A stretch of DNA of 63,645 nucleotides from an uncultured Deinococcales bacterium (GTDB lineage Bacteria > Deinococcota > Deinococci > Deinococcales > JAAFIG01): NCBI GenBank assembly GCA_964247135.1, contig CAXTTL010000005.1, positions 1 to 63,645 on the forward strand, read 5' to 3'. Both the position numbers and the translations under genes were made by a program. A model generated the notes under the pieces. It saw only the letters and a program-made list of their open reading frames with translations. It did not search any database and had not been told where the DNA came from. The stretch's first letter is position 1, and each line of letters opens with the position of its first letter. Shown here one piece after another: positions 1-63,645 of the stretch.

Positions 1-611
1 TGAAAACTTCTTGCCGATCCAAAATCGATCAAGACCACCCGCGAATCTTGGGTTAAAAAAACATTGTCGGGTTTGATGTCACGGTGCAACAAACCCGCCG
101 TATGCACCACCTCGAGCGCCGCGCACAACTCGAGCGCCAAGCGTTTGACTTCGGCTTCGGGCAGTTTTTGCTCTCGAGCCATTTTAGCGCCCAAAGTTTC
201 GCCCGTTAAAGCCTCCATCACCAAATACGCGGTGTTGTTGGCTTCAAACACCTCGAGCACCCGCACAATGCCAGGGTGGTTGAATTGCGCCAAAGTTCGG
301 GCTTCCTCAAGAAAACGCGTTTTGGCTTCCAGAAAACCCGTTGCGCCCAAACTGTTCGGCGGTATCAAACTCGAGTTTTGGCGGGTGCTGCCATCGGGGA
401 ACAATTCTTTGATCGCTACCCCGCGTTGCAAAACGGTGTCCTGCGCCAAGTAGGTGATGCCAAAACCACCTTGACCAAGCACGCGCCCGATCAAATATTT
501 CCCGAGCACGGCACCATTCTCGAGTTGAAAACCTTTGAGGTTCGCGCCGCAATTCGAGCATGTTTGGTCATTTGAGGTTGTGGGCGCGGCGCAATACGGG
601 CAAGAATCCAT
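1..611 (-). CDS. Ser/Thr protein kinase with N-terminal zinc ribbon (runs off the left edge of the window)
   Basis: Manual translation of the minus strand from ATG 611 gives MDSCPYC...CSNCG, LGQGGFGITY, VAIKE, HRDIKPDN and DFGSAR. TACACT lies 7 nt upstream. Absent from the ORF track because there is no stop in the window. Confidence 0.9.
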   Translation of the reverse strand, partial: MDSCPYCAAPTTSNDQTCSNCGANLKGFQLENGAVLGKYLIGRVLGQGGFGITYLAQDTVLQRGVAIKELFPDGSTRQNSSLIPPNSLGATGFLEAKTRFLEEARTLAQFNHPGIVRVLEVFEANNTAYLVMEALTGETLGAKMAREQKLPEAEVKRLALELCAALEVVHTAGLLHRDIKPDNVFLTQDSRVVLIDFGSARSF

Positions 612-681
612 CGAGAACAGTGTACGAGGTGAAGCACACAAAAGTTGCCAAAAAAACCACTCGAGTCAAAGCAACAATGCT

Positions 682-2115
682 TTAATCCGTTGGTAAGAGC
701 AAAATCATCATGACCACAACTTGTGCCGTGAAGGTGTATGTACCCACGCCGAAGGTCTCGAGCAATGCCGAAGGCACGAGCGCAAGCGTGGCGGCACTGA
801 TCGCGGCTTCTGCGCCCGTGCTGGCAAAACCCGCCCAGGTCGCTACTTTCTCGAGCAGCAACAAACCGAGCATGGTTCTGGTGATGCCCAAAAGCGCTGG
901 CTCGAGCGGATAATTTAAGAGGCTCGAGACGAGCAGGGCAATGACGCCAACCACGCCGATGATGGCAAGTCCTGGCAGCGTGCGCCCGAGGCTGCGTTCG
1001 CTGCTGCGAATCGGTGTGGAAATGATCGGCATGGCGGGACCGACCAGGCGCGGCAGCAAAAACCCGAGCGCCAAAGCCCGCAGCAAGAAACCACCCACGC
1101 CAGACACCGTAGAAATGCTCGAGAAGACCACGAATGCCAGTTGCAACAACAAACCGATTTGGTCAAACACGGGACGGCGGTACAAGGTCAAGGCGCTGCG
1201 CCAGGCAACCGCCAGCAGAATACTCGAGTCCAGCGCAGGCAGTGGCAAACTGCGGGTGGGGCGGATGCTCGAGACCCGACCCAACAGTTGATCGCGCAAA
1301 CGTCGGTGCTGGTCTGGGTCGGGTCTGGAACGCGCCACCAAACTCATCAGCATCATGGAGCGCAAGGATGAAAGAATTTGGGATTGCACGGCGAAACGCG
1401 GCGGATAACCACGGGTCAAACTGGCTCGAGAACCAATCACACCAAAAATCAGCAAAACAACGGGCAGCAAACCAAGAGGGTTCAAATTCCAAAAACCGCT
1501 GGCAAGCCCAAAGCCGAGCACGCCACCCGCAACGCTGGCGACAACGACCACCAAAACCAGCGCGTTCAACCAAGCTCGAGCGGCGGTGTTTTCAGTGCCT
1601 CGGGCGCTGTACGCCAACCACTCGAGGTCAACGGTCAGGGCGGCAATACAACCGAGCGTGATCGCCGCGAACGGCGTGAAAATATCAAACCAATAACTGG
1701 CAATCAGTGTCCAAACCGCACCCAAAGTAAAGGCAATCGCAAACCTGAAGACCCTGGCAAACATCAGGGGCCAGTCGAGCACCTCTCGAGCATCCTCGGC
1801 GGTGAGTGCCAAACGGTAGACATCACGCCCGTTTAAATTGATGGGCGGTGTGCTCGAGCGGCTGGCGGAAAACAACAACCACAATCCAGCCAAACTCGAG
1901 AAAATGACGGGCAGCCATTTGGTGCTGATCGGTTGTTTGAACTTGGGCAATACCTCGGCGCCAGCGATGATCGCCACGACCACCCAGCCGATCATCCAGA
2001 GGACTGTTCCCCAACCTATCGCCTTGCCAACATAAACCGCCCACGAACTGAAACCCCTCGAGAGTGACAAGCGACGGGCGAAACGCGTGGCGGACTCTGA
2101 ATGGGCGGGGGTCAT
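682..2115 (-). CDS. Polytopic membrane protein, probable ABC exporter permease
   Basis: 477 aa with many hydrophobic segments; its start overlaps the stop of the ABC ATPase (ATGA). Confidence 0.7.
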   Translation of the reverse strand: MTPAHSESATRFARRLSLSRGFSSWAVYVGKAIGWGTVLWMIGWVVVAIIAGAEVLPKFKQPISTKWLPVIFSSLAGLWLLFSASRSSTPPINLNGRDVYRLALTAEDAREVLDWPLMFARVFRFAIAFTLGAVWTLIASYWFDIFTPFAAITLGCIAALTVDLEWLAYSARGTENTAARAWLNALVLVVVVASVAGGVLGFGLASGFWNLNPLGLLPVVLLIFGVIGSRASLTRGYPPRFAVQSQILSSLRSMMLMSLVARSRPDPDQHRRLRDQLLGRVSSIRPTRSLPLPALDSSILLAVAWRSALTLYRRPVFDQIGLLLQLAFVVFSSISTVSGVGGFLLRALALGFLLPRLVGPAMPIISTPIRSSERSLGRTLPGLAIIGVVGVIALLVSSLLNYPLEPALLGITRTMLGLLLLEKVATWAGFASTGAEAAISAATLALVPSALLETFGVGTYTFTAQVVVMMILLLPTD

Positions 2116-2819
2116 GCGTTCAGTTCCTTGAGGTTCTGGGTTTCAACCCGCACCCCAACCTCGAGCGAGGTGTCCTTCAAATTCGCGTTCTCGATCAACA
2201 AGACCCGCGATTTGACATTGCCCTCGAGCATCGTTTTTGCCAGATCACCTTGGTGCGCACTGACGACCACCGCATGACCAGCTTTGACGCGATCACGCAA
2301 GGCGCTCGAGAGCAACGCCTGAGCGGGAGCGTCCAAACCATTGAACGGCTCATCGAGCACCAACAGCGGCAACTCGAGTCCCAAACACAAGGACAGACTC
2401 AGTTTTTGCCGCATTCCGCGCGAGTGAGACGACGGGAACTCGCCCAAACGACCCTCGAGATTGAATTTCTCCAGAAACTCGAGCATCCGAGCCTCCGCCT
2501 GTGGTTGCCGGTACGCCAACGCCTGAAACCGACAATGCTCAAGCAACGTCAAATCCTCGTACAACGCGGGTTCGTCGGGCACGAACGCAAACTTGGAACG
2601 CGCATCAATGCTGCGCGGCGAAAAACCCATGATCTCGACATCGCCCTTGAAAGGCAACAAACCCGCGAGCGCCCGCATCAGCGTGCTTTTGCCCGCACCG
2701 TTGCGACCCGTGAGCCAGACCAACTCGGCATTGACCGTCAAATTCACGTTCTCGAGAATTTGCGTGCGAGCCAGCACCACCTCGAGATCAACCAATTTCA
2801 GAATAGGAGCATCAGACAC
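2112..2819 (-). CDS. ABC transporter ATP-binding protein
   Basis: Walker A GRNGAGKST, signature SRGMRQK, Walker B LVLDEP. GTG 2819 chosen because TAGACT lies 7 nt upstream. Confidence 0.9.
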   Translation of the reverse strand: MSDAPILKLVDLEVVLARTQILENVNLTVNAELVWLTGRNGAGKSTLMRALAGLLPFKGDVEIMGFSPRSIDARSKFAFVPDEPALYEDLTLLEHCRFQALAYRQPQAEARMLEFLEKFNLEGRLGEFPSSHSRGMRQKLSLSLCLGLELPLLVLDEPFNGLDAPAQALLSSALRDRVKAGHAVVVSAHQGDLAKTMLEGNVKSRVLLIENANLKDTSLEVGVRVETQNLKELNA

Positions 2820-3001
2820 GAGAACGAGTCTACGCCGTAAAAGCCAAAGCGAAAAGGAAGATGGTACGGCGCGAATGAAACCCAAACCCAGAATTCTCAC
2901 CTCGAGATGCGAAAATGCGCGTCATGAACGCGATTGGAATTCTGACTCGAGGGTTTAGGGCTGTTTGTGCTGGATTTGAAAATAGGCAAGTTGTCGCGCC
3001 A

Positions 3002-3134
3002 CCCTCATCCCCGACCCTTCTCCCGCCAAGCGGGAGAAGGGAGCTTTGGTGCTATCTCGAGAAGTCAAAATTTGTTGGTTTGAATCCTCTCCCACTTGTG
3101 GGAGAGGGTGGCGAGCTTGCGAGCCGGGTGAGGG
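3002..3134. repeat. Composite REP-like palindromic element (copy A)
   Basis: Hairpins CCCTTCTCCCGC/GCGGGAGAAGGG and CCTCTCCCAC/GTGGGAGAGG. The reverse complement aligns with 18585-18736 and 9137-9174. Confidence 0.75.
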
Positions 3135-5203
3135 CTTCACGTGCGCGAAGCCTTATCCAATTTGTTTGTGCGTTAGGGTTCTTGATGTCCCCCGCCATCG
3201 CCGCACCCCTGCCTCAAACCCCAACGGACACCGCATACAAAGGCGATGCGTTCTCGAGCATCATTCCGAAACCGCAAGAACAAACCGATGCGAACGGAAT
3301 ACTGCCGCTCGAGAATCTCAGCATCAAACTTGAGGGGAATGCGCAAGAACTGACTTGGGCGGCGCGAGATGTAAATGAAGAGGTGTTCTCGAGGTTGGGC
3401 AAGACGCTCGAGATGACGGGAAAAGCGACCACGATTCGGATTGGAACGCTCGAGAATGCAGGACTTGCGACAGAAGCCAAAACCCGAGGAATTCTGCCAG
3501 ACAAAGCCGAAGGCTACGGTTTATGGGTGGATGATAAGGGTGCGGGTGTGGTTGGTTTTGATGCGCTTGGCGCGTACCGGGGCGTGCAAAGTTTAAGGCA
3601 ACTGCTCACGCCAACAGGTTTTCGCTTCTCGAGCATCAGAGATTACCCGAGCTTGCAAACCAGGGTTGCCATGATTTATTTGGATGTGTACTCCAAACCG
3701 ACCAACGATTGGTTGATCCCGATGCTTGCCAAACTGAAATTCTCGAGCGTGCTGGTGATGAGCGATTACGTGAAATGGGACAGCAGCAAGAACATTTGGC
3801 ACCCACAGGGCGCGAGCAAGGCGGAGGCAGTACGGGTGGCGGAATTGATTCGTACTCACGGCATGGATGCCATACCATTGATTGAAACGCCAGGTCACGC
3901 CAGTTGGCTGTTTTACAACAACCAAAACCGTGACATCGCCCAAGACCCAGACACCAAAGAGCCTTATGCTTACGACACACTCAACCCGCACACGTATGAG
4001 GTTTTGCTGCCAATTTTGACTGAAGCGGTGGAAGTCTTCAAACCTAAATTTGTTCATATTGGACACGACGAGGTGATTGCGGATGGACGTGGGCGTTTTC
4101 CCGCTCGAGAGAACGGTATTGCCGTGGGCTTCGAGAAATTGTTCGTGGATGACACCATCAAACTTCACGACCACCTGAAAAGCCTTGGCGTCGACACGAT
4201 GATCTGGCACGATGTTGCGCTTTCAGAAGCTTACCGTGACAAAATTCTGCCAGCACTGCCCAAAGACATTGTGTTTGCCAACTGGCATTACAGCGCTGCC
4301 GACGATTACCCAAGCATCAAATACGCCCAGTCTCAAGGCTTTCGGGTGCTCGGTGCGAGTTGGTTTCCGACGGGCAACCCCGAAAAAATGGCAGCCGCTG
4401 TCGCTCGAGAAAACGCGATGGGCGCAATCCAAACCCGTTGGACGGGATATTTTTACTCCAACATTGCCATTTACGACGGCAACGCCGAACAGGGCGCGGC
4501 GTACTTTAATGCCGCCTCGAGCTTCTGGAATGTGAACGCTCCAAACCTCGAGAATCTGGAAAGTGCCAGACGCTACCGAGACGCGTTCAAATCCAGCAAA
4601 TACGCGCCAATCAAAGGCACACTGATCGACCTCTCGAGCCTTGTCACCCGCAAACTGACCGACCGTGACGAAACCCAGTGGGTGCAAAAAGGCTCGAGCA
4701 CCGACCTCTCGGGTTTGCCCACAGGTGCAAACGTCAAACTGGGCGCGTACACCTTCAACATTTCAGGCGCGATCATGCTGAAAGGCGCTCGAGCTGCCGC
4801 CCAAGACCTGCCCGAAAAAGTCACGCTCGAGATTGGCGCACCTGCCCCCGCGATCAATTTCTTGCACACCACCGGTTGGCTTGGCACGCTGAGCAGCCCA
4901 CGGCAAAAAGTTGGCGCATACACGATCAACTATTCTGACGGCTCGAGCATGATTCAACCCCTCGAGTACGGACGCAACATCAACGTCTGGACCGAACCCA
5001 GCGTCGAAAACACGATTCGCAGCATCATCAACGATCCCGTTTGGCGCGGCAAAACAACCGACGGACTCGAGATTGGCTTGAACGTGTTCACCTGGGTCAA
5101 TCCAAACCCCACAAAAACCATCGCCAGCATCGAATTCTCGAGCGAAGGCACGCAAGCCAACCCAGCCCTGATTGGGTTGACGCTGCTCGAGAAAGCACCT
5201 TGA
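3128..5203 (+). CDS. Glycoside hydrolase family 20 (beta-N-acetylhexosaminidase-like), secreted
   Basis: IETPGHA and HIGHDEV (GH20 H-x-G-x-D-E catalytic motif); signal-like N-terminus. Start uncertain: the ORF is open from 2915 through the REP element. Confidence 0.8.
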   Translation: MRASRARSLIQFVCALGFLMSPAIAAPLPQTPTDTAYKGDAFSSIIPKPQEQTDANGILPLENLSIKLEGNAQELTWAARDVNEEVFSRLGKTLEMTGKATTIRIGTLENAGLATEAKTRGILPDKAEGYGLWVDDKGAGVVGFDALGAYRGVQSLRQLLTPTGFRFSSIRDYPSLQTRVAMIYLDVYSKPTNDWLIPMLAKLKFSSVLVMSDYVKWDSSKNIWHPQGASKAEAVRVAELIRTHGMDAIPLIETPGHASWLFYNNQNRDIAQDPDTKEPYAYDTLNPHTYEVLLPILTEAVEVFKPKFVHIGHDEVIADGRGRFPARENGIAVGFEKLFVDDTIKLHDHLKSLGVDTMIWHDVALSEAYRDKILPALPKDIVFANWHYSAADDYPSIKYAQSQGFRVLGASWFPTGNPEKMAAAVARENAMGAIQTRWTGYFYSNIAIYDGNAEQGAAYFNAASSFWNVNAPNLENLESARRYRDAFKSSKYAPIKGTLIDLSSLVTRKLTDRDETQWVQKGSSTDLSGLPTGANVKLGAYTFNISGAIMLKGARAAAQDLPEKVTLEIGAPAPAINFLHTTGWLGTLSSPRQKVGAYTINYSDGSSMIQPLEYGRNINVWTEPSVENTIRSIINDPVWRGKTTDGLEIGLNVFTWVNPNPTKTIASIEFSSEGTQANPALIGLTLLEKAP

Positions 5204-5221
5204 ACCAGATAGAATGGCTGC

Positions 5222-5584
5222 ATGACATCCGAGCAACGCAATCGTCACAGCATTCGATTGCGAAATTACGATTACACCAGCAACGGCGCGTATTTCATCA
5301 CGATTTGCGCCCAAACCCGAGAAGCATTGTTGGGTGTACTTGAGCCAGGAGATGTCGTAGGGGATGGTCTCAGACCATCCCCTAAACACGGTCTAACCGA
5401 AATCGTGAGGGCATTGAAAAGCTTTTCTGCGCGTCGCATCAATGAAGCTCAAGGAACTCAAGGGCAAGCTTTTTGGCAGCGTGGTTTTTACGATCATATT
5501 GTGCGGTTGGAAAATGATCTCGAGGATATTCGGCAGTACATTCTCGAGAATCCCAGGCGTGCATTTTTGAAGGGTTTGTCATGA
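5222..5584 (+). mobile_element. Internally deleted REP-associated tyrosine transposase (RAYT/Y1, IS200/IS605 TnpA-like)
   Basis: RHSIRLRNYDY..GAYFITIC, KSFSARRIN, WQRGFYDHIVR and YILENP are present. The HUH segment (MPNH-x-H) is missing. Confidence 0.8.
5357..5384. repeat. GTAG-type REP palindrome inside the RAYT remnant
   Basis: G-TAGGGGATGGTCT-C-AGACCATCCCCTA, with perfect 13-bp arms. Confidence 0.7.
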
Positions 5585-6501
5585 TTTCCGAAGCTCGAGT
5601 TGGTTCTCAAACCCGTTTCTGGCGCAACATTCTGACCGCGTATGGTTTCTTGCTACCAACACTTTCGTTTAAACTCCTGTTCACGTTTTGGCCCATCGCC
5701 TTCGGGATTTTTCTGGCATTCACGCAATCGAACATCATTGAAACCAAAATCATTGGCACACAAAATTTTCGGGAATTGTTCGGCACGGCAGAATTTAGTG
5801 CTCGAGGTCCCAGTCCGTATTTTTTTGAAGGCATGATTAACAGTTTGAAGTACCTGATGTGCGTGCCGGTGATTCAGTTTTTGAGCATCGGTCTGGCGAT
5901 GCTGGTGAACCGTCAAATTCCGGCGATTGGCTTGTTCCGCACGGCGTATTACGTGCCGGTCGTCACCAGTTTGAGCGTGGTGGGGTTCATGTGGAAGGGC
6001 ATGTACGATCAGCATGGACCACTGAATTACATCCTGACCGTGTTCGGTTTGATGGACGCCAAAAACCCCTCGAGCCTTTTAAACAATTCCAATTACGCCC
6101 TGTACGCCGTGATGCTGATGACGGTTTGGAAGGGCTTGGGGTATTACATGGTCTTGTACCTGGCAGGTTTGCAAAGCATTGACCGCACGCTCGAGGAGGC
6201 GTCTGTGATGGATGGCGCGAACCGCTGGCAGGTGTTTTGGAACATCACGTTGCCTGGTTTGCGCCCAACGTTGTTGGTGTGTGGTTTGCTGTCCACCATC
6301 AGCGCCATCAAGGTTTTTGAAGAAATTTATGTTTTGACGGGTGGCAGTTCTGGCACGTACACCGTGATGTATTTTGTGTACGCCAAAGCCTTCCAAGATT
6401 TTAGGTTTGGCTTCGCCGCCGCCGCAGGGCTGGTCGTGGCGTTTGTGAGCCTGATTTTTGGTTTTATTAACTTTAGACTTACGAGGGGAAATCAAGCATG
6501 A
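5581..6501 (+). CDS. Carbohydrate ABC transporter permease 1
   Basis: EAA loop LEEASVMDGANRWQVFWNITLP; several TM helices. Confidence 0.92.
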   Translation: MISEARVGSQTRFWRNILTAYGFLLPTLSFKLLFTFWPIAFGIFLAFTQSNIIETKIIGTQNFRELFGTAEFSARGPSPYFFEGMINSLKYLMCVPVIQFLSIGLAMLVNRQIPAIGLFRTAYYVPVVTSLSVVGFMWKGMYDQHGPLNYILTVFGLMDAKNPSSLLNNSNYALYAVMLMTVWKGLGYYMVLYLAGLQSIDRTLEEASVMDGANRWQVFWNITLPGLRPTLLVCGLLSTISAIKVFEEIYVLTGGSSGTYTVMYFVYAKAFQDFRFGFAAAAGLVVAFVSLIFGFINFRLTRGNQA

Positions 6502-7400
6502 TTGAGACTCGAGAATCCAATACTGTCGCGCTCGAGGCGATTCGTTTGATGAAACGAACGCGTGAACGCAACAAACTCATCACCAATATTTTGATTTACA
6601 TCTTGCTGACCGCGATTGCGTTTGTGTTTATCTATCCGTTCTTGTGGACGCTTTCGACCTCGTTTGAAACCACGGGCGGCGTTTCCGAATTTCCACCGCA
6701 TCTCATTCCGAACACTCCCAGTTTTCGCAATTACATCGATGTGTTTGCGCTCGTGCCTGTGGGAAGGCAAATTCTGAACAGCGCTTTGATTTGCTTGATT
6801 GGCGTTTCAGGCAGCGTTTTGCTGGCAACCTTGGGCGCGTATCCATTGGCAAAAATGAATTTCCCAGGACGGGATTTGATTTTTTACATCATTCTGGCAA
6901 CACTTGTTTTGCCCAACGAGGCGGGCATGATCGTCAATTACGTGACCAGCGCCAAACTCGGCTGGCTGAAATCCGATGTCGGCAAGTACGTTGCCGTGAT
7001 CGCGCCCGCACTGGCAAACGTTGCAGGTTTATTTTTGATGCGTCAAGCCTATCTCAGTGTGCCGCTCGAGCTTCTCGAGGCTGCGCGGATGGACGGCGCG
7101 AGTGAACTGACGATTTGGCGCAAGGTCATGCTGCCGTTGACTTTGCCGACGCTCAGCGCCTTTGCGATTCTGCAATTTGTCGCGTTTTGGAACACGTTTT
7201 TGTGGCCAAGTATTGTTTTGCAAGGCGACCGAAACCTCTTGCCGCTTTCGGCTGGGATGCTCGACCTCAGTTCGCAATTCAGCACCAACACCAGGGCAAC
7301 CAGTGCGGGTGCGGTGATTATGATTTTGCCGATTTTGATTGTGTTTTTGTTTTTTCAACGCTATTTCATGCGTGGACTCGAGGGTGCGGTGAAGGGTTAA
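6498..7400 (+). CDS. Carbohydrate ABC transporter permease 2
   Basis: EAA loop ELLEAARMDGASE; C-terminal FQRYFMRGL..GAVKG. Confidence 0.92.
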   Translation: MIETRESNTVALEAIRLMKRTRERNKLITNILIYILLTAIAFVFIYPFLWTLSTSFETTGGVSEFPPHLIPNTPSFRNYIDVFALVPVGRQILNSALICLIGVSGSVLLATLGAYPLAKMNFPGRDLIFYIILATLVLPNEAGMIVNYVTSAKLGWLKSDVGKYVAVIAPALANVAGLFLMRQAYLSVPLELLEAARMDGASELTIWRKVMLPLTLPTLSAFAILQFVAFWNTFLWPSIVLQGDRNLLPLSAGMLDLSSQFSTNTRATSAGAVIMILPILIVFLFFQRYFMRGLEGAVKG

Positions 7401-8323: not shown

Positions 8324-8438
8324 AAACCAATTATGCGCCACCTCGAGCCATCAAAGAAAAGCTGGAAGGAAAATCCAATTTGCCGTACAAAATCAAATCT
8401 TGAGAAAATATTTCATGTTCAACATGACATACTGTCTC

Positions 8439-9174: not shown

Positions 9175-9187
9175 GGAGACGCAAGCT

Positions 9188-54691: not shown

Positions 54692-54706
54692 ATCAATCTC
54701 GAGCCG

Positions 54707-55264: not shown

Positions 55265-55348
55265 GGCTACAGTCTACGGTGCTTCTCGAGCAATAATTTG
55301 AGGTTGAACCCAGATTAGGAATGTTACGTATCTTGACTCGAGGTGAGC

Positions 55349-55918: not shown

Positions 55919-55938
55919 TCTTCGAGTATGCTGAAACG

Positions 55939-56424: not shown

Positions 56425-56435
56425 GGCTCGAGGTT

Positions 56436-56696
56436 TTATTTTCGCAGCAAGAACAAACTGACCAGCACCGCCAAAACCAGACCGCAACCCGAAAGTAAAA
56501 TCGAAACGAACGTGCTTTTATCTTGCGCCCGCGCCTCGAGCGCCACCATGACGGCGCCGACCAATGGCGCGAGCACCAGAATGCCAATGCCGAGCCACAG
56601 CACGGGTTGAACGATCAAGCCAATGGCTAAGAACACCAGACCGCCAGTCAGGCTTAAACCGTAAACTCGAGCGAGTTTGGTTTCCACGGCTAACAC
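56436..56696 (-). CDS. Small membrane protein (DUF1634-like)
   Basis: Three hydrophobic segments; directly follows the TauE gene. Confidence 0.6.
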   Translation of the reverse strand: MLAVETKLARVYGLSLTGGLVFLAIGLIVQPVLWLGIGILVLAPLVGAVMVALEARAQDKSTFVSILLSGCGLVLAVLVSLFLLRK

Positions 56697-57490
56697 CCGC
56701 CTTTGCTTGCCGTGCCGAGGATGTGCCAGTATTTGTTAAATAAATCAAACGCCGAATAAAACACCAACAGCGCAAACAGCGACTTGAGGGTTTTGACCGG
56801 AACGCGTTTGGCGTAATTGCTCATGACCCTCGCGCCAATCAAAATCCCCAGCGCAATCGGTCCCGCCAGGCTTGGCTCGAGTTTGCCGCTGGCGCTTTGT
56901 ACCAGGGCGTTGGCGATGGCGGTCAGACCCATCATGAAGGTGCTGGTGGCGATGGCGGTGCGAAAGGGCAGTCCGACCAGCAGGTTTAAAACGGGGACCT
57001 GAACCGTACCGCCGCCAACGCCCAAAAGACCGCTCATGACCCCGCCGAATGCCACGGCGGGACGCGACCAGATTGATGGGATGGCGCGTTCAGTCTCGAG
57101 GCGGTTCATGCCGCGCAGCATTTCAAAACCGGTGTAAACCAGCAAAACCACGAAGACGCTGGCAACGATTTTGGGTGCCAGGACAATTAAGAGTAACGAC
57201 CCAACCACGCCGCCCAACACCGTGAACGGACTGAGGCTGTAGGCGGTCTTGATGCGCACCAGACCACCCTGGCGCAAATAACCGGCGCTCGAGGCGACCG
57301 CCACCGACAAGACCCCAATCTGCGAGGCGGCGATGATGTGCTGCAAGGGCACGCAGTGGCTCATGAATTTTGGTCCCAGAATCTCTAACGTTGGCACGAC
57401 CACCACGCCGCCCCCCAAGCCGAGCAGTGCGCCCAAACCGCCGGCGATCAGACCGGTCAGCAGCGGAAAAACAATATCCATGATTGGCAT
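56690..57490 (-). CDS. Sulfite exporter TauE/SafE family protein
   Basis: GALLGLGGGVVVVP, SGLLGVGGG..VP, AIATS. Confidence 0.88.
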   Translation of the reverse strand: MPIMDIVFPLLTGLIAGGLGALLGLGGGVVVVPTLEILGPKFMSHCVPLQHIIAASQIGVLSVAVASSAGYLRQGGLVRIKTAYSLSPFTVLGGVVGSLLLIVLAPKIVASVFVVLLVYTGFEMLRGMNRLETERAIPSIWSRPAVAFGGVMSGLLGVGGGTVQVPVLNLLVGLPFRTAIATSTFMMGLTAIANALVQSASGKLEPSLAGPIALGILIGARVMSNYAKRVPVKTLKSLFALLVFYSAFDLFNKYWHILGTASKGGC

Positions 57491-57514
57491 GTTTCGAGCA
57501 TACCGCGCCAATGG

Positions 57515-58855
57515 TCATGGTTTGTCAATGCTTGACTCGAGCCTGCCAAACTCGAGGCGCACCGTTGTTCCGACCGAAGGTTGACTGGTGATTTGCACAT
57601 TTCCCTGGTGTGCCTCGACGACCGCTTTGACCACCGCCAAGCCGAGTCCAGAACCCTCAAATCTCGAGTTTCCACGGTGAAAAGCTTCAAACACCAGCTC
57701 GAGTTCGCTGCCGTTCATGCCGATACCCGTGTCGGTCACGGACAAAATCACTTTTTGATCTCCAGCTTCGACCAGCACCCGCACCTCGCCAGCGTTGGTA
57801 AATTTCAGGGCGTTGCCGAGAATATTTTCAAGCGCCCGCTCGAGCATCAAGCGATCACCCATCAGTTTTGCGGCTGTTCCGTCAATGCTCAACTCGAGGT
57901 TTTTGCTGGCAGCGAGCGGCATCAGACGGTCGGTGACCTCGGAGGCAAGATCAGTCAAATCGAGCGCTTGCAATTGCAAATCGCGTTCGGTTTGCGAGAG
58001 TGTCAGGAGGTTATTGATCAGCCGCCGCAAGTGTTGGGCGTTGCGCCAAAAACGCTCGAGCACCGTTTGATTTTCCGTCTCGCTGCGCGGTCTGGCGCGG
58101 TGGGTTTCCAGATCGGCAAGCAACGCCGTGACAGGCGTGCGAAGCTCATGGGCGGCATCGGCAACAAAACGGTTTTGCCGCAGCCTGGAGGCTTGCAGTT
58201 CAGTCAAACTTCCTTCCAAGGCTCGAGCCAAAATGCCGATCTCGTCGGACAAACCAATCCCCGGAATGACTTCACCAGACTCGAGGTTTTCGACGCGGTG
58301 CGCCAGTTTCTCGAGCGGTTGTACGGTTCTGGCAACCACAAAAGCGATCAACAAACCCGCCAACACCGTCGCCACAAGGCTGACCACCGCCACGATGCTG
58401 ACGTACCGTTCCATGTTGCGCGTCATGATCGAAAGTGGTCGCCCCGCCTGAACCGCAAAATCGCCGGAGCGCAAACTGACAATTCGCCAATCGTTGACAT
58501 TGCTGTAGCGAACACTTTGGCTGTTCTGAAAGAACATCGAATCGAGCGGTTCGTTTGGCGCATCATATTTACCCGCACCAGATTCCAATTTTCCTTGAAA
58601 GTACAAAAAAGCAGTGGTCGAACCCGTGGCGGTCACCAAAGCATTTTCCAGATCGACTGAGATTTGAACTGGTTTTCCAAGTTTGGCTTCGTCTTTGGCG
58701 TCATCCAGAATTTGCTGGGCTTGAACCCCCAGCTCTTCGTCCAGATCACGAATCAGGCTGCGCTGCAAGAACACGCCCGTAATGACCGACAAGCCAACCA
58801 ACGCCAGCAAGGTGATGAAGCTCGAGAGCAGCGCCAGTCGAATGCGCAGGCTCAT
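57515..58855 (-). CDS. HAMP sensor histidine kinase
   Basis: DAAHELRTP, NILGNALKF, DTGIG, GSGLGL. Confidence 0.92.
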   Translation of the reverse strand: MSLRIRLALLSSFITLLALVGLSVITGVFLQRSLIRDLDEELGVQAQQILDDAKDEAKLGKPVQISVDLENALVTATGSTTAFLYFQGKLESGAGKYDAPNEPLDSMFFQNSQSVRYSNVNDWRIVSLRSGDFAVQAGRPLSIMTRNMERYVSIVAVVSLVATVLAGLLIAFVVARTVQPLEKLAHRVENLESGEVIPGIGLSDEIGILARALEGSLTELQASRLRQNRFVADAAHELRTPVTALLADLETHRARPRSETENQTVLERFWRNAQHLRRLINNLLTLSQTERDLQLQALDLTDLASEVTDRLMPLAASKNLELSIDGTAAKLMGDRLMLERALENILGNALKFTNAGEVRVLVEAGDQKVILSVTDTGIGMNGSELELVFEAFHRGNSRFEGSGLGLAVVKAVVEAHQGNVQITSQPSVGTTVRLEFGRLESSIDKP

Positions 58856-58882
58856 GACGTGCCTTTGAAATCATTTGCCATG

Positions 58883-59548
58883 TCAGACCTTGGGGAATCT
58901 GTAGCCCATGCCGACCACGGTCTCGACCACCCAAGCCCCAAGTTTGCGCCGCAAGTTTTTGACGTAAACATCGACCACGTTGGTTTCGGCTTCAAATTCC
59001 GATCCCCAGACCCGATCCGCGATCTCTTCACGCGAAAAAACCCGTCCTGGGTTGGACGCCAGCACCTCGAGAATGCCAAATTCTTTGGCGGTCAAATGCA
59101 CGGTTTGCCCCGCTTTGGTCACCAAATGCGACTGCCAATCGAGCTTGAAATCCTGATACTCGAGCACTTTGGCGACACTCGGTCTGGCGCGGCGCAACAA
59201 CGCCCGCAAACGCGCGTGCAACTCGTCAAGCTCGAAGGGTTTGACCAGATAATCGTCGCCCCCCGCATCCAAACCAGCCACACGGTCTGCCAAACTGTCG
59301 CGGGCGGTCAAGAACAAGACCGGACTGGCAAGACCCGCCTCGCGCAAGCTGGCGACCAATTCAAAACCCGCGTTGCCGCCTTCGGGCAGGCGCACATCCA
59401 TGATCAGCGCATCAAACTCGTAATTCTCGAGCAAGCCCTTTGCTTCGGAGGCGTTGGCTGCCTCGTCAACCGCGTAATTGTGCTCTCTTAAGCTCTGCGC
59501 CAAACTTTGGCGAATCGTGGTGTCGTCTTCGGTAATCAGTACGCGCAT
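58883..59548 (-). CDS. OmpR-family response regulator
   Basis: EDD, MDVRLP, LTARD, DDYLVKPF, NVVDVYVKNLRRKL. Confidence 0.94.
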   Translation of the reverse strand: MRVLITEDDTTIRQSLAQSLREHNYAVDEAANASEAKGLLENYEFDALIMDVRLPEGGNAGFELVASLREAGLASPVLFLTARDSLADRVAGLDAGGDDYLVKPFELDELHARLRALLRRARPSVAKVLEYQDFKLDWQSHLVTKAGQTVHLTAKEFGILEVLASNPGRVFSREEIADRVWGSEFEAETNVVDVYVKNLRRKLGAWVVETVVGMGYRFPKV

Positions 59549-59583
59549 GAAAACATCATAAACCCTTCAGGCTATCTCGAGCG

Positions 59584-59601
59584 TTTCATATCGATTTCAT
59601 A
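59584..59601 (-). promoter_or_regulatory. Possible OmpR-type direct-repeat site upstream of the response regulator
   Basis: TTTCATA twice with an 11-bp period, upstream of TATGAT-N6-ATG on the minus strand. Confidence 0.4.
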
Positions 59602-59862
59602 CCTTAAGAGCACACTTTGACTCAGGGATGAAACAAAACGAGATCAAAGCAGCAACGTTCGAGTTTTACATCCCAAAAATAAGATTGATTTGATCTAAAA
59701 GTTATTTTTTAAGTCAAAAAATAGATGTAAATCGTCCTAAAAAATTTAAAACAACAGTTTATTCATTGAAAAATTAACATTCTAATCATTACTCTTTATG
59801 TTTTAACTGTTTCTTCGCCCTCTCGAGCTGTTTTAAACAGCTAAAAGATCAAAGGAGTACTT

Positions 59863-60183
59863 ATGAAAATTGCTAAAAGCATTATTGTTGCCGCCACAAG
59901 CCTCTTGCTCGGAACGGGAATGTTGGTCGCCAACGCCCAAAAAACCACTGGTGCAATGACCAAAACCCCAACTGTTGCAGCCAAAATGGTAAAGATTGCT
60001 CCAGTCAATGTCAACACCGCCAACCTCAAAACCCTCGAGACGCTGCCGGGCGTGGGACCAAAGATCGCCGCCTCAATCATCAAAAACCGTCCTTATAAGA
60101 ATTCAAAAGACCTGGAAACCAAAGTCAAAGGCATCGGACCCAAGGTCTGGAGTGAAATCAAAGCCTACGTGCTGTTCAAGTAG
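59863..60183 (+). CDS. ComEA-like helix-hairpin-helix secreted protein
   Basis: VNVNTA..LETLPGVGPKIA..RPY..VKGIGPK. Confidence 0.88.
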   Translation: MKIAKSIIVAATSLLLGTGMLVANAQKTTGAMTKTPTVAAKMVKIAPVNVNTANLKTLETLPGVGPKIAASIIKNRPYKNSKDLETKVKGIGPKVWSEIKAYVLFK

Positions 60184-60222
60184 CACTTTTTTCAGGTAAG
60201 ACTCGCGGCGTCCCAAGGAAAA

Positions 60223-60256
60223 TCCCGTCAGGCTTTGGCTTGACGGGAACTTTTTT
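60223..60256 (+). terminator. Intrinsic terminator
   Basis: TCCCGTCA...TGACGGGA followed by TTTTTT. Confidence 0.7.
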
Positions 60257-60274
60257 GGTCTGTTTTCTAATGGT

Positions 60275-60871
60275 TTAACCAGCCATGTTTTTGAGCCAGA
60301 ACGTCATGGGCTTGGGCGTCTCGAGTTCTTCGCCAATTTCTTGCCACGAAAAAAACGTGGTTAATTCTGGGCGTTTTTCAAAACCTTGAGCCTGCCAAAA
60401 CGTGTCCAGATCACGGTGGGAGGCTGGACGCGACGGATGATTTGGTGGTCGCTCCACCGCACAAAACGCCGCCCAAACAAACCCACCCAATTTTTTCGCG
60501 TGATTTTCTCGAGCCTCAAAAAACTGTTTTCCCAACCCATGCCCTCGGTACGCTGGCAGGAGCACGCTTTCCGCCAGATAAAACACGGTTTTTGGGTCAA
60601 AGCCATGCTCCAGAAACGGTTGTTGCACTTCACTGGTTTCAGATTCCAATGGCAAGGCACTCGAAGCCCCAACGATTCGCGTGCCGTCACGCACCACCAC
60701 AATCAAAGCGTTTTCACACTCGAGATAGGTTTGCAAATACTTTGATTCGTAGGTGATCGAACCCGCGTACAGGTACGGAAATTCTTTGAAAACCCTGATT
60801 CTCAAGTCTGCCAAATCATCGATCACCGACGCGGTGCTCATTCCTGTCAGCGCCTCAAGGCTTACATTCAT
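60275..60871 (-). CDS. GNAT-family N-acetyltransferase
   Basis: LRIRVFKEFPYLY, ESVLLPAYRGHGLG. Confidence 0.88.
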   Translation of the reverse strand: MNVSLEALTGMSTASVIDDLADLRIRVFKEFPYLYAGSITYESKYLQTYLECENALIVVVRDGTRIVGASSALPLESETSEVQQPFLEHGFDPKTVFYLAESVLLPAYRGHGLGKQFFEARENHAKKLGGFVWAAFCAVERPPNHPSRPASHRDLDTFWQAQGFEKRPELTTFFSWQEIGEELETPKPMTFWLKNMAG

Positions 60872-61266
60872 GCGATCTGCGAAAGCCAATCAGCCAGGTT
60901 GTAATAATTCGTGACCCGAGCAATTTTACCGTCCCGCACCGTAAAAAATGCGCCCCCAGGCAGAGAATACTGTTGCCCCGTGGCTTCTGGCAGACCCGCA
61001 TCGGTGGCTTGGTACGTGCCACTGACCGTGTACTCGGCGGCGGCTCGAGAACCGTCATGGTTCACCATCACATCGAGCGGTTCGATGTGCTCCTGATAGC
61101 ACTCGTTCATTCGCGCCAGAAAAGCGCGAAAGGCTGGTTTGCCACCCTCACGGTTGCTCTCGTTGACATCATGCGCAACATCGTCGGTCAGCAACTCGAG
61201 CATTCCTTCCCAGTCGGCGGTGTTGAAACGCTGGTAATAATTCTGGATCAATTCGGTGGTTGTCAT
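60868..61266 (-). CDS. Ketosteroid isomerase-related (NTF2/SnoaL-like) protein
   Basis: YYQRFN..DDVAHDVN, TDAGLPEA, RVTNYYNL. Confidence 0.88.
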   Translation of the reverse strand: MTTTELIQNYYQRFNTADWEGMLELLTDDVAHDVNESNREGGKPAFRAFLARMNECYQEHIEPLDVMVNHDGSRAAAEYTVSGTYQATDAGLPEATGQQYSLPGGAFFTVRDGKIARVTNYYNLADWLSQIA

Positions 61267-61302
61267 CTCGAGAATTCTAACTTCTTGGTGTTACAAAGAA
61301 AA

Positions 61303-61328
61303 CCCTGTCAAGTTTTAACTTGACAGGG
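61303..61328 (-). terminator. Intrinsic terminator after slyD
   Basis: CCCTGTCAAGTT-TT-AACTTGACAGGG with a T-run on the minus strand. Confidence 0.7.
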
Positions 61329-61357
61329 CGGCAAGATTGTAAGGCGTTGCAAAAAAA

Positions 61358-61828
61358 TTAATTGTGGTGATGCCCGTCGTGCGAGTGCCCATGCTCGAGT
61401 TCATCGGGTGTGGCGTCCCGAATGCCCACAACCTTCACTTCAAACTCGAGTTCTTGCCCCGCCAGCGGGTGGTTGAAATCGACCAGCACTTGATCGCCTT
61501 CGATGGCAAGCACGTTGAAGCTGATCGGGTTGCCCTCGCTGTCCTCGCCCGAGTAGGTCTGCCCAATCTCGAGTTCGGTGTCAAAGCTCGACATGGGAAT
61601 GTTCTGCATTCCCTCCTCGTCGAATTCGCCGTAACCTTCATGCGGTTCGACTTTTACCGTTTTACTCTCACCGACCGCCATGCCCGTCAAGGCATTCTCG
61701 AGTCCGACCACGATGTTGCCGTGTCCGTGAAGATAGGAGAGCGGTTCGCCAAGGCTCTCGTCAATCACGTCACCTTCGACCCGCAACTTGTACTCGAGGG
61801 CAACGACTTTGTCTTTTTGAATGTTCAT
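61358..61828 (-). CDS. slyD: FKBP-type peptidyl-prolyl isomerase SlyD
   Basis: YLHGHGN, DFNHPLAG, His-rich tail. Confidence 0.93.
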   Translation of the reverse strand: MNIQKDKVVALEYKLRVEGDVIDESLGEPLSYLHGHGNIVVGLENALTGMAVGESKTVKVEPHEGYGEFDEEGMQNIPMSSFDTELEIGQTYSGEDSEGNPISFNVLAIEGDQVLVDFNHPLAGQELEFEVKVVGIRDATPDELEHGHSHDGHHHN

Positions 61829-61888
61829 GGAACTCCTCTTCGCACCGATTGGTGACTTCAGGAGTTTAGCAGACTATTCTAAAATTCA

Positions 61889-62908
61889 TCAGGGTGTACC
61901 CTCACGCAGCAACTCGCCCAACCTCGAGACGCAACGGGCGTACTTTTTGGCGTAGCCACCGTGTTTGTAAGACTCGAGGAAGAGGTCGGCAATTTCGCAA
62001 CCGCTGGCTGAAAGCCGAATTTCGCGGTCGTAAAGTTTATCGATAAAATGCACGAACCGCAGCGCAGCGTCTTGTTTTAAAATTGGGTTTAAACCCGTGA
62101 TAAACACGCCTTGTAGACCCTCGAGCAAACCGACGTAACGAATCGGGTGAAGTTTCTCGAGGTGGGCGTTCAAATCGCTGAACGATGCCAGGGTTTTAAC
62201 GCCCTCAAAAGTTTGAAATTGAGTCTCGAGTTGCAGGTCGCTTAACGGATGCGGGGCGCTTAAACCCTCACGGTGACGGTAATCTGGACCGTCAATCTTT
62301 AAACCCTCGAACCTGTTGGCGATGCTTTGAATCTCGCGTTTGAAATCGTCAGCGTTGAACCGTCCCTCGCCGAGTTGGTTGGGCAGCGTGTTGGAGGTCG
62401 TGACCACTCGGGTTCCGTTTGGCATCAAACGCCCGAAGAACATGGCGACCATGAGCGTATTACCCACGTCATCAAGCTCAAATTCGTCGAGGCAAATCAA
62501 TTTGTATTTTGCAAAAGCCCGCACCGCCTTTTCCATGCCGAGCGCCCCGATGGTGTAGACCAGTTCGGCAAAGCTCAGAAAAACCTTTTCGAGTTTGGCT
62601 TCAAACCAAGTCGCCGCCAGCAAATGGGTTTTGCCCACGCCAAAGCCGCCATCGAGGTACAAACTGGGGCTGATGTCAGGTTTTTTGAACAAGCCAAAAC
62701 CCTTGCGCGGCGTTCCTTCGGGTACAAAACGCTCGAGCCTGATTTTGGCGGCTTCTTGCGAGGAAAATGCAGGATTGGGCTGATAATTTGAAAACCGCAC
62801 ACCGGCAAAACGTGGCGGCGGAACAAAAGTCTCGAGCAGACGAATTGGATCAACGGCGGCGTTGCGTTCTTGAAGGTTGATGATTTGCGACGTTGAAACC
62901 TCTGGCAT
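61889..62908 (-). CDS. zapE: AFG1/ZapE-family ATPase
   Basis: YLDGGFGVGKTHLLA, DEFELDD, TSNTLP, DGPDYRHR. Confidence 0.9.
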   Translation of the reverse strand: MPEVSTSQIINLQERNAAVDPIRLLETFVPPPRFAGVRFSNYQPNPAFSSQEAAKIRLERFVPEGTPRKGFGLFKKPDISPSLYLDGGFGVGKTHLLAATWFEAKLEKVFLSFAELVYTIGALGMEKAVRAFAKYKLICLDEFELDDVGNTLMVAMFFGRLMPNGTRVVTTSNTLPNQLGEGRFNADDFKREIQSIANRFEGLKIDGPDYRHREGLSAPHPLSDLQLETQFQTFEGVKTLASFSDLNAHLEKLHPIRYVGLLEGLQGVFITGLNPILKQDAALRFVHFIDKLYDREIRLSASGCEIADLFLESYKHGGYAKKYARCVSRLGELLREGTP

Positions 62909-62939
62909 GACGCTCAAAACTAACATATTGCATTGAGGG

Positions 62940-63419
62940 CTAACGTTCACCGAGCGGGATACTGGTTTGATCCGTCCGCACCAGCATCCAAATTTGCCTG
63001 ATCGCGCCAACATGGTAAGCAACGTGAGAGGTGTTGCTCATCAATAAATTCAATAATTTTGGATTCCATTCGGTGCTCAAAGAAATCAAGGTTTTCAAAG
63101 TCTCGCACTCGGTCTGAAGTGCCGTTTTCAAAGCCTCCCAGGCATCACCATCGACGCCCGAGGTTTTCCACGCCAGACTCCAATCGGGTTGTGGCTTCTC
63201 GAGCTTGACCCAGGCGCTCACAACGTTGATCACATACCGCAGGTGCTCGCAGTGCGCGGCGATGCTCGAGCGACCAGGCGCGGGAAGCTTCGAGGCTGTG
63301 GCGGCATCAATTTGCGCCAGGGTCAGGAACAAACCTTCAAACCAACCCTCGTCAAAACGGGCGTTCAGGGCTTCATCAAAATTCTCGAGCAGGACCGCGT
63401 TCAGGGCTTCAATGTTCAT
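62940..63419 (-). CDS. DinB-family protein
   Basis: SIAAHCEHL and HVAYHVGAIRQ. Confidence 0.85.
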   Translation of the reverse strand: MNIEALNAVLLENFDEALNARFDEGWFEGLFLTLAQIDAATASKLPAPGRSSIAAHCEHLRYVINVVSAWVKLEKPQPDWSLAWKTSGVDGDAWEALKTALQTECETLKTLISLSTEWNPKLLNLLMSNTSHVAYHVGAIRQIWMLVRTDQTSIPLGER

Positions 63420-63459
63420 GGCTCGAGTTTAGAGGACAAGGGTTGCGATTTGATGACGT

Positions 63460-63645
63460 TTAAATTCTGCCCAGCGCCAACAATCGGCTGGGAATACCGT
63501 GTTCTGCGCCCCTGGTTTCCTGGCTGAGTCCAAGCAAGCGGGTGTTTTCTGGCAACCGGATAAAATTGGAACCGGCAATAAACGCCTCGAGCGGCACGGC
63601 GTGCGGATCGCGGTCGCGCAGCGTCCGGCGCACCGGCCACGCGAA
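63460..63645 (-). CDS. 3' end of a CDS entering from the right edge (function unknown)
   Basis: Open frame FAWPVRR...LLALGRI* from the window end to TAA at 63460. Confidence 0.45.
   Translation of the reverse strand, partial: FAWPVRRTLRDRDPHAVPLEAFIAGSNFIRLPENTRLLGLSQETRGAEHGIPSRLLALGRI

Follow-up and report, generated by a model that had tools for sequence, protein, structure and literature searches.

Strong, lineage-wide excess of the palindrome CTCGAG in an uncultured Deinococcales family: a new variant of the highly iterated palindrome phenomenon

Why does one six-base palindrome recur throughout a bacterial genome, within genes and between them, far more often than chance allows? The question is raised by a stretch of 63,645 nucleotides from an uncultured Deinococcales bacterium (contig CAXTTL010000005.1 of assembly GCA_964247135.1, positions 1 to 63,645), referred to here as the window, which carries 422 copies of CTCGAG (6.6 per kb). 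In 100 dinucleotide-preserving shuffles of the window the mean count was 12.26 (standard deviation 3.25, maximum 22), and none of the shuffles reached 422. A first-pass annotation made from the letters of the window had listed eleven sites in its first kilobase, and each of these is CTCGAG at exactly the coordinate given (Table 1). The high density that it described across most of the window was also found, with 3 to 21 sites per 2 kb and a sole exception at positions 27,390-32,868, where 9 sites occupy 5.5 kb.

The metagenome-assembled genome (MAG) that holds the window as its contig C5 (G000) comprises 5,091,702 bases in 386 contigs, the largest of 115.6 kb, and is 84% complete, with 1.8% contamination and a GC content of 52.7%. 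CTCGAG is the commonest hexamer of this genome, with 33,925 copies, i.e. 6.7 per kb or one per 150 bases. Its observed/expected ratio is 24.8, 35.2 and 14.4 under Markov models of order 0, 1 and 2, so that this short palindrome is about 15-fold or more in excess genome-wide, as is typical of highly iterated palindromes (HIPs). At orders 3 and 4 the ratio drops to 3.45 and 1.24, because the conditioning sub-words come mostly from the hexamer itself: 62% of the 54,606 TCGA tetramers of the genome lie within CTCGAG. The maximum-order expectation (ratio 1.24) was therefore dropped as a control, since the 5-mers are themselves produced by the hexamer. The excess of CTCGAG is real, strong and lineage-wide, and is a new variant of the HIP phenomenon.

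Genes were called with a simple codon-usage score of open reading frames (ORFs), which gave 4,390 genes covering 84% of the DNA of G000. Coding DNA carries 27,747 copies of the word (6.55 per kb) and non-coding DNA 6,169 (7.22 per kb), corresponding to 23.6 and 31.6 times the expectation from local base composition, respectively. Shuffling synonymous codons gene by gene, so that each protein and the codon usage of its gene are retained, reduced the 27,792 copies counted in genes to 3,902 +/- 33, and shuffling of the codon order left 1,642 +/- 32 (10 replicates each). All three frames contribute: 17,405 sites are read as CTC GAG against 3,058 after the synonymous shuffle, 4,113 as nCT CGA Gnn against 290, and 6,274 as nnC TCG AGn against 555. 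The window behaves in the same way, with 368 sites in called genes (6.51 per kb; 216 in the frame CTC GAG, 98 in nnC TCG AGn and 54 in nCT CGA Gnn) and 54 in non-coding DNA (7.55 per kb); 200 synonymous-codon shuffles of its genes gave 51.5 +/- 6.4 sites and 75 at most. The first-pass annotation had placed sites in all frames and in intergenic DNA, as is indeed the case, and had proposed a codon-shuffled control under which an effect of codon and dipeptide usage should make the enrichment disappear; with this control the excess persists, both in the genome and in the window. Occurrence in all frames and in non-coding DNA, beyond what codon usage yields, is a hallmark of HIPs, and the excess of CTCGAG is a property of the DNA, independent of codon usage and protein sequence.

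The proteome of G000 has been bent to fit the word. Leu-Glu is its most over-represented dipeptide, with 22,574 occurrences and an observed/expected ratio of 2.36, against 1.02 for Glu-Leu, and 77% of the Leu-Glu pairs are encoded by CTCGAG. Outside the Leu-Glu context, CTC accounts for 15% of Leu codons and GAG for 32% of Glu codons. Ser-Ser, which can accommodate the word as TCG AGY, is found at 1.62 times expectation.

Individual sites are preserved against mutation at the DNA level. Alignment of 400 kb of a second genome of the same genus (G005) to G000 gave 90 blocks with 288,972 columns at 86.4% identity, in the ungapped columns of which 1,503 of 1,878 CTCGAG sites (80.0%) are intact in G005, compared with 46.3% of 279,716 other hexamer positions. 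Among the 1,864 words with at least 60 occurrences CTCGAG is the best conserved. Identity per base is 0.92-0.95 at the six positions of the word and 0.80-0.89 on either side of it. The third base of the Leu codon CTC is unchanged in 937 of 1,043 cases (89.8%) where GAG follows and in 729 of 1,302 (56.0%) where the next codon is not for Glu; likewise, the third base of the Glu codon GAG is unchanged in 965 of 1,043 cases (92.5%) after CTC and in 846 of 1,228 (68.9%) after a codon for another residue than Leu. Synonymous positions within CTCGAG change about four times less, which after a rough correction for multiple hits amounts to a five- to six-fold lower rate of loss. The word is thus conserved beyond other words and beyond codon and protein constraint, as HIPs are. 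In a simple mutation-bias-drift equilibrium, used here with no fitted model, a population-scaled bias of about 2.5-3.4 would fit both the 24-32-fold excess and the slowing of loss. With a bias so weak, each copy should matter little, and the effect should be cumulative rather than site-specific.

Newly acquired DNA starts poor in CTCGAG. In the window, DNA shared by more congeners carries more of the word: density rises from 0.96 per kb in DNA found in G000 only, to 2.07 per kb in DNA present in two of five congeners, to 6.9-7.3 per kb in conserved core DNA (Table 1), from which it follows that the word accumulates with residence time and that the process is current. Across the assembly, 24 segments with at most 5 sites per 3 kb total 93 kb, or 1.8%. 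Five motif-poor regions were scanned, including those on contigs C75 (12-19.4 kb, L276), C17 (19-26 kb, L277) and C78 (L275); they encode a TraG-like P-loop ATPase and a TrbC/VirB2 pilin for conjugation, as well as a DDE transposase and, elsewhere, an rve integrase that adjoins a sugar-utilisation cluster with a glycoside hydrolase and an ABC transporter. In viral contigs at least 131 stretches have three CTCGAG within about 100 bases; none of the 79 loci examined carries the family signature, and the densest of these 79 are on GC-rich contigs rich in GAGCTC and GGCC.

Table 1. Features of the window, in window coordinates, with CTCGAG counts and state in five genomes of the same genus (G001 to G005) where given.
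Feature	Positions	Strand	Remarks
Whole window, 422 CTCGAG	1..63645		genes in three frames and spacers
Eleven CTCGAG of the first kilobase	1..1000		111, 129, 173, 252, 370, 519, 660, 757, 850, 901, 923
Conserved core DNA	1..27389		200 sites, 7.30 per kb, observed/expected 26.5; syntenic with five congeners, 72-92% identity per matched piece
Accessory segment: subtilase; TPR and HD-domain protein	27390..30777		7 sites, 2.07 per kb, GC 0.47; present in G003 and G005, synteny breaks in G001, G002 and G004
Segment with MFS transporter gene	30778..32868		2 sites, 0.96 per kb, GC 0.44; most motif-poor part; not seen in any of five congeners, flanks 8 bases apart in G005, G003 likewise without the segment
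Conserved core DNA	32869..63645		213 sites, 6.92 per kb, observed/expected 25.1; partial synteny
Synonymous recoding in the V-ATPase B gene	18321..18326	+	GCT CGA GGT (Ala Arg Gly) in G000 and G003, GCC AGG GGT in the four other congeners
CTCGAG in G000 only	2305..2310	-	three adjacent bases differ from the other five genomes; gene strand TCC TCn to TCG AGn
REP-like hairpins in spacers	2985-3160, 9105-9195, 18570-18765		
V/A-type ATPase operon, complete	10697-19464		subunits I, C/AC39, A, B and others
V-ATPase B gene	17180-18583		only 3 CTCGAG, lowest density among conserved genes
BTAD + AAA_16 + TPR regulator, 1,239 aa	23803-27522	-	MalT/AfsR-like architecture; segment missing from G002

The unit of the excess is the bare six-base word, with no longer repeat around it. 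The flanks hold at most 0.125 bit per position, with A slightly favoured at -3 and G at -1, a bias that is mirrored on the opposite side and is alike in coding and non-coding DNA. The C before TCGA is coupled to the G after it with an odds ratio of 16.5, and palindromic extensions of CTCGAG to eight bases are disfavoured, at 0.44-0.92 of independence. The 18 words that differ from CTCGAG at one base add up to 22,396 copies, about the expected number, with the transition neighbours being the commonest. As 18 copies is the highest count of any 18-mer around the 6,053 non-coding sites, a mobile repeat is not their source, and a dispersed repeat of the repetitive extragenic palindrome (REP) or miniature inverted-repeat transposable element (MITE) type was ruled out on this ground. 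REP-like hairpins do occur in three spacers of the window, with the arms CCCTTCTC... / ...GAGAGAAGGG; their cores lack CTCGAG, and many copies at 70-100% identity are found in all five congeners.

Other palindromes are avoided in this genome. The median observed/expected ratio of its 64 palindromic hexamers is 0.15, with 28 of them below 0.1, while that of non-palindromes is 0.81. GAGCTC does not occur at all (0 against 1,369 expected in G000, and 0 in the window), GGGCCC occurs once and CGGCCG 3 times, and the tetramers GGCC and CTAG have ratios of 0.02 and 0.07. Such avoidance suggests a very heavy past and present load of restriction-modification. CTCGAG is the lone strong exception among the avoided palindromic hexamers, in agreement with the earlier description of its abundance as the opposite of restriction-site avoidance.

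The word is spread almost evenly over the genome. Of 2,341 two-kb bins of G000, just 7 contain two sites or fewer, and density climbs with GC content from 2.7 to 7.2 per kb. A gene-centred profile is flat at 6-9 per kb, except that density peaks 1.9-fold within 25 bases downstream of stop codons, and convergent, divergent and tandem spacers are similar (6.9-7.9 per kb); the flatness across gene starts and ends speaks against a site-by-site regulatory role. On a finer scale neighbouring sites repel each other. The pair-correlation in genes is 0.22 at 6-11 bases, 0.40 at 12-17 and 0.94 by 36-49, and in spacers clear depletion is confined to 6-11 bases (0.38); no similar repulsion was found for eight control words or for the pooled one-off words. 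A spacing of exactly six never occurs; it would create GAGCTC, which is forbidden in this genome. From 75 to 1,200 bases the pair-correlation is flat (1.04-1.08), with no preferred spacing. Counts at scales of 50-500 bases are under-dispersed, with a variance/mean of 0.79-0.91 against at least 1.0 for control words. Gaps and variance/mean had initially suggested a regular spacing of about 150 bases; this was rejected, as the pair-correlation gives short-range repulsion only, and by our estimate this repulsion explains both the regularity of gaps and the under-dispersion.

G000 was placed in family f1 of a five-family order, and the best named match of its V-ATPase A subunit is from Thermus (70% identity). 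Stretches of 1.7-20 kb per genome were surveyed in 18 genomes of f1 and 32 of the four sister families, of which f3 is, at a guess, Deinococcus-like, f5 Thermus/Meiothermus-like and f2 Truepera-like. All 18 genomes of f1, which represent at least five genera with GC contents of 0.46-0.62, have the excess, at 9.7-32.6 times expectation. The ratio is 2.4-6.5 in f2 (17 genomes), 2.9-8.4 in f4 (5 genomes), 2.4-8.9 in f5 (6 genomes) and 0-0.4 in f3 (4 genomes). A few-fold excess is expected in GC-rich genomes from a preference for CTC and GAG codons, and it is therefore to f1 that the strong trait is assigned; in weaker form the excess may be ancestral to the order. A site map of rpoB, qualitative since two of its rows are misaligned, has some CTCGAG positions common to the family and even to sister families. 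The opposite extreme within the order is represented by the Deinococcus-like f3, in which 20-kb stretches contain 0, 3, 1 and 0 copies (L130, L134, L138 and L274). In Thermus-type genomes TCGA is strongly avoided except in CTCGAG: all 20 TCGA in 20 kb of one f5 genome (G022, L132) lie inside the word, as do 23 of about 50 in 21.7 kb of T. caliditerrae (L031), and the CTC GAG codon pair seems to be exempt there from TaqI-type avoidance. No paper that reports an excess of CTCGAG in Deinococcota, or joins CTCGAG with the term 'highly iterated palindrome', was found in the literature searched, outside which subscription journals largely fall.

The first-pass annotation had drawn a link to methyltransferases by way of HIP1, had suggested a methylation-linked mutational or repair process or else a chromosome-organising or DNA-uptake signal, and had proposed a search for an orphan methyltransferase of XhoI/PaeR7I or TaqI type. 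G000 was accordingly searched with profiles for DNA methylases and repair enzymes (Eco57I, XhoI, N6_N4, C5, N6_Mtase, TaqI_C, Vsr and D12), and three enzymes of G000 and of the one closed genome of the family (G011), as well as two enzyme families, were then traced phyletically. At least 10 DNA methyltransferase genes are present in G000, most of them adjoining candidate endonuclease genes. In this 84% complete genome TaqI_C and Vsr (PF03852) have no match; nor has the XhoI endonuclease, a weak negative since the model also matched none of 14 control genomes. Matches of the N6_Mtase, Eco57I and D12 classes occur in all five family genomes examined. The most orphan-looking enzyme of G000, of 349 aa and the N6_N4 class, is present in 5 of the 18 family genomes. 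A Dam-like enzyme is present in 6 of 18 and is 84% identical to that of another genus and 76% within its own, which contradicts kinship. N6_N4-class enzymes were not found in 3 of the 18 genomes, G011 among them, and C5 enzymes are present in 16 and were not found in 2. The sole C5 enzyme of G011 has a best family match of only 38% identity; it shares an operon with genes for an HD-CE protein and an ORC-CDC6-like ATPase, an arrangement that looks like a defence system (L211, G011:C1:4978000-4988000). Two weak Eco57I matches in G000 proved to be MmeI-family type IIL restriction-modification enzymes of 844 and 929 aa (contigs C21, L142, and C192, L143), 26% identical to each other; the shorter one has weak matches to the target-recognition domain and the N-terminus and no match to the C-terminal domain. 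Characterised members of the MmeI family cut at asymmetric sites. Within the limits set by incomplete MAGs, the queries used and the specificities of the enzymes, none of the methyltransferases traced is distributed vertically across the whole family, and the co-occurrence of cognate orphan methyltransferases with the word across the lineage, a feature of HIPs, was thus not observed here (5/18, 6/18 and the negatives of G011). The proposed link to a methyltransferase was not borne out by these patchy distributions, and neither was a repair process of the Vsr kind: one-off words stand at expectation, the states opposite G000 sites that differ at one base number 28, 29, 16, 29, 35 and 20 across the six positions, and there is no hot spot at either cytosine. 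The absence of a C-to-T hot spot argues against 5-methylcytosine.

How sites arise was surveyed in a six-genome alignment of positions 1-20 kb and other parts of the window. In several apparent gains (18321, 2305, 20743) three to four bases are changed inside the hexamer and the flanks are unchanged, and some distributions are incongruent with the tree. At 18321, 27 bases on each side are almost identical across all six genomes, and at 2305 the recoding of Ser-Ser switches the serine codon family (Table 1). Where one genome has the word and the aligned hexamers are not identical, three or more bases differ at 21% of the positions; for control hexamers the figure is 10.5%. Under strict polarisation five gains, with 1, 1, 2, 3 and 4 changes, were left; three of the five have at least two changes (P = 0.03), in a tiny sample of which the four-change gain lies in a misaligned REP region. 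Word-presence patterns that need at least two changes on the tree make up 16% of 38,166 control cases, and 34-44% for control words with two to four carriers; recombination among congeners is evidently frequent. Given this homoplasy of controls, the few polarised gains and a pairwise excess of only two-fold, the writing of the motif by multi-nucleotide events was kept as a lead and not as a finding; the multi-base pattern can arise by recombination or by sequential change in fast-evolving DNA. The best-matching runs of public reads contained no more than 0.19 of the words sampled. Four contig runs were compared with positions 10,001-20,000 of the window; among 40 of the about 1,109 differences none falls in CTCGAG, where about 1.3 would be expected, so that the comparison has no power.

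Four explanations compete with the one preferred below. That the word results from codon and dipeptide usage handed down from GC-rich Thermus-like ancestors with a preference for CTC and GAG can be regarded as refuted. Abundant TCGA and CTC/GAG usage does bring GC-rich relatives and unrelated GC-rich genomes to 1-3.6 sites per kb, as in two haloarchaeal loci with 3.5-3.6 CTCGAG and 19 TCGA per kb, and the sister families stand at 2.4-8.9 times expectation; but synonymous or codon-order shuffling removes 86-94% of the sites of G000, non-coding DNA is the denser compartment, the family members with GC contents of only 0.46-0.51 have the highest ratios (20-33), and CTC is a minor Leu codon (15%) where no Glu follows. 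A role in structuring the chromosome, with an abundant nucleoid protein binding the hexamer as a dimer and even coverage compacting or organising the chromosome, is compatible with the data yet improbable. The very high and nearly uniform density (7 of 2,341 bins with two sites or fewer) and the under-dispersion of 0.79-0.91 at 50-500 bases would agree with it, and an architectural role has been proposed for HIP1 from its periodicity in the accessible part of PMC5861425. On the other hand, repulsion at distances shorter than about 36 bases (genes) or 12 bases (spacers) accounts, by our estimate, for the under-dispersion, the pair-correlation of 1.04-1.08 over 75-1,200 bases leaves no preferred spacing, and no candidate for the binding protein emerged.

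Methylation comes nearest among these alternatives and is still unlikely. Here, as has been proposed for HIP1, an orphan methyltransferase would mark CTCGAG for strand discrimination during mismatch repair, for replication control or for a methyl-dependent processing of incoming DNA, and cells with more sites would be fitter. HIP1 co-occurs with the orphan methylases DmtA and DmtC, and Elhai proposed methyl-directed repair (PMC4390886, in the part available), and raises transformation only if methylated, as stated in the available text of 10.1101/2024.09.10.611283. Every family genome examined has several DNA methyltransferases (N6_Mtase, Eco57I-type and D12 in 5/5, C5 in 16/18), and the footprint of restriction-modification is extreme (GAGCTC 0 against 1,369, GGCC 0.02). 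A trait of 18 out of 18 genomes, however, predicts an enzyme with a family-wide vertical pattern, and none of those traced has it: the 349-aa N6_N4 enzyme and the Dam-like enzyme are in 5 and 6 of 18, the latter against kinship, N6_N4 was not found in 3 of 18, including G011, whose C5 enzyme matches at 38% at best and sits beside defence-type genes, TaqI_C is unmatched in G000, the weak Eco57I matches are type IIL enzymes of the MmeI family, and the cytosines of the word show no C-to-T hot spot. Rather less probable again is a mutational or repair bias without function, in which short-patch repair, mismatch correction or biased gene conversion would turn near-cognates into CTCGAG and restore damaged copies. 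A weak and uniform per-site bias, alike in coding and non-coding DNA and in all frames, is what a genome-wide enzymatic process would give; acquired DNA gains the word with residence time, some gains change three to four bases and leave the flanks unchanged (18321, 2305, 20743), and differences at three or more bases are twice as frequent as in controls (21% against 10.5%). Yet Vsr is unmatched in G000 (84% complete), and CTTGAG (1,442) and CTCAAG (1,436) are not depleted relative to about 1,240 expected from base frequencies, though a Vsr-like activity should drain such substrates, so that neither the enzyme nor the loss of T:G-derived neighbours that mark such a system is seen. In addition, the repulsion of neighbours up to about 36 bases in genes (g = 0.22-0.80) is not what sites made independently by an enzyme would show, and the multi-base gains, which recombination can equally produce, shrink to three of five under strict polarisation (P = 0.03).

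By elimination and analogy, the explanation ranked first, with a probability of roughly 40%, is that CTCGAG is a 'self' word comparable to HIP1 and uptake sequences, under a weak per-site bias that most likely acts through DNA uptake or recombination. The data are compatible with such a signal, DNA uptake having been among the suggestions of the first-pass annotation. The reader of the double-stranded hexamer would most likely be a dimeric protein that acts in natural transformation or in recombination. Uptake or recombination would then favour alleles or fragments with CTCGAG, in the manner of the Pasteurellaceae and Neisseriaceae uptake sequences and of the current proposal for HIP1; molecular drive, or else selection for exchange with kin, would spread the word, which would mark DNA as 'self'. 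Unlike in HIP1, a dedicated conserved methylase is apparently not involved. The host encodes uptake machinery, as expected of a bearer of uptake sequences: a single full-length ComEC gene (PF03772) was found in G000 and in 17 of 18 family genomes, other competence genes not having been searched for.

Several points weigh against the uptake or recombination word. ComEC is also present in 12 of 12 genomes outside the family, from sister families without a strong excess, and is thus non-discriminating. Known uptake sequences are asymmetric words of 9-12 bases, and a six-base palindrome with flanks of at most 0.125 bit is not such a word and carries little information. Strictly polarised gains are far outnumbered by losses (5 against 71, in a count biased by the choice of positions), and the homoplasy of CTCGAG (20 of 92 cases, against 16% in controls) gives no clear indication that motif alleles are imported more often. 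According to the available text of 10.1101/2024.09.10.611283, the effect of HIP1 on transformation depends on methylation, but a conserved methylase was not found here; either the analogy with HIP1 is incomplete or the enzyme escaped the searches. Selection and biased transmission are indistinguishable from substitution patterns alone, and the data come from simple ORF-scored gene calls on the fragmented MAG described above.

A more specific form of the uptake or recombination word may be put forward only tentatively, as it is less probable than the general one: a kin-discriminating uptake or recombination system that reads a bare six-base palindrome without a dedicated methylase, and would represent a second, independently evolved 'genomic self-tag' on the model of HIP1 and uptake sequences. 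If this were true, the roughly 34,000 copies per genome would owe their maintenance to a molecular drive powerful enough to have altered about 13,000 dipeptides. In a bolder variant, at which the three- and four-base gains with untouched flanks hint, a short-patch process might write the whole hexamer in one event for part of the accumulation.

HIPs have posed a puzzle ever since the 1990s, and in the literature searched they are regarded as peculiar to cyanobacteria. With another case comparison becomes possible: the word is a different one, the phylum is distant, the density is two to twenty times higher, and no conserved methylase was found. Features common to both lineages, e.g. natural competence, a heavy load of restriction-modification and frequent recombination with kin, become candidate causes, and features not common to both, notably orphan methylases, are not required. 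The graded series within one order, from almost none in Deinococcus-like genomes through 2-9 times expectation in three families to 10-33 times in f1, is a natural experiment that could support a phylogenetic-correlation study as done for HIP1. A weak bias at the DNA level can evidently distort a proteome far, as seen from Leu-Glu at 2.4 times expectation. The word is, moreover, a sharp compositional marker that may be of use in the binning of MAGs of this family, in spotting their acquired DNA and in the design of donor DNA for any cultured member.

Among known systems, the Dcm/Vsr pair of E. coli couples repair to a methylated palindrome and biases the genome towards CCWGG, with a modest effect and a depletion of T:G-derived neighbours; CTCGAG differs in its 25-fold excess, its undepleted neighbours and the lack of a Vsr match in G000. 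The uptake signal sequences (USS) of Pasteurellaceae and the DNA uptake sequences (DUS) of Neisseriaceae are asymmetric words of 9-12 bases that occur about once per kb, with an experimentally established uptake bias and, for DUS, a known receptor pilin. They resemble CTCGAG in their excess in both genes and spacers, their imprint on proteins, their family-wide distribution, their scarcity in recent acquisitions, a weak per-site bias that fits molecular drive, and a host with competence genes. CTCGAG, in contrast, is a six-base palindrome at 6.7 per kb, known from sequence alone and with no receptor candidate. Chi, which acts with RecBCD or AddAB, is likewise an over-represented word that marks resident DNA and modulates recombination, and is asymmetric and oriented with replication. 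CTCGAG is its own reverse complement, and a word of the Chi type was rejected for this reason; PDDEXK_1 proteins are not family-specific either (present in 10 of the 18 genomes of f1 and in 10 of 12 others). Kamoku and Nielsen, in the available text of their study, liken HIP1 itself to Chi (10.1101/2024.09.10.611283).

The closest relative is HIP1 (GCGATCGC) of cyanobacteria, a parallel already drawn in the first-pass annotation and upheld here by the large excess, the occurrence in all frames and spacers, the conservation beyond codon and protein constraint, and the low density in acquired DNA. Both are short palindromes in tens-fold excess, in all frames and spacers, and HIP1 too is conserved beyond codon and protein constraint, rarer in atypical DNA and found in hosts that otherwise avoid palindromes (PMC4390886 and PMC5861425, in the parts available). 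HIP1 differs in being eight bases long instead of six, a different word and in another phylum. It is also sparser, at 300-2,700 copies per Mb in the accessible data of Elhai (PMC4390886), against 6,660 for CTCGAG. HIP1 has the methylases DmtA and DmtC, as given in the accessible part of PMC4390886, while no conserved cognate orphan methylases were found for CTCGAG; and it is often extended, while the palindromic extension of CTCGAG is disfavoured. HIP1 is now proposed to be a signal for DNA uptake or recombination in the parts available of PMC13756078 and 10.1101/2024.09.10.611283, the same kind of role that is considered for CTCGAG above. In some cyanobacteria another hexamer or pentamer (a GGCGCC-type hexamer, GCsGC or rCCGGy) can take the role of HIP1 with a similar excess, which in the accessible account of Elhai 2015 (PMC4390886) is limited to single strains or small groups; CTCGAG, by contrast, is common to a whole family of at least five genera and extends, in weaker form, to three sister families.

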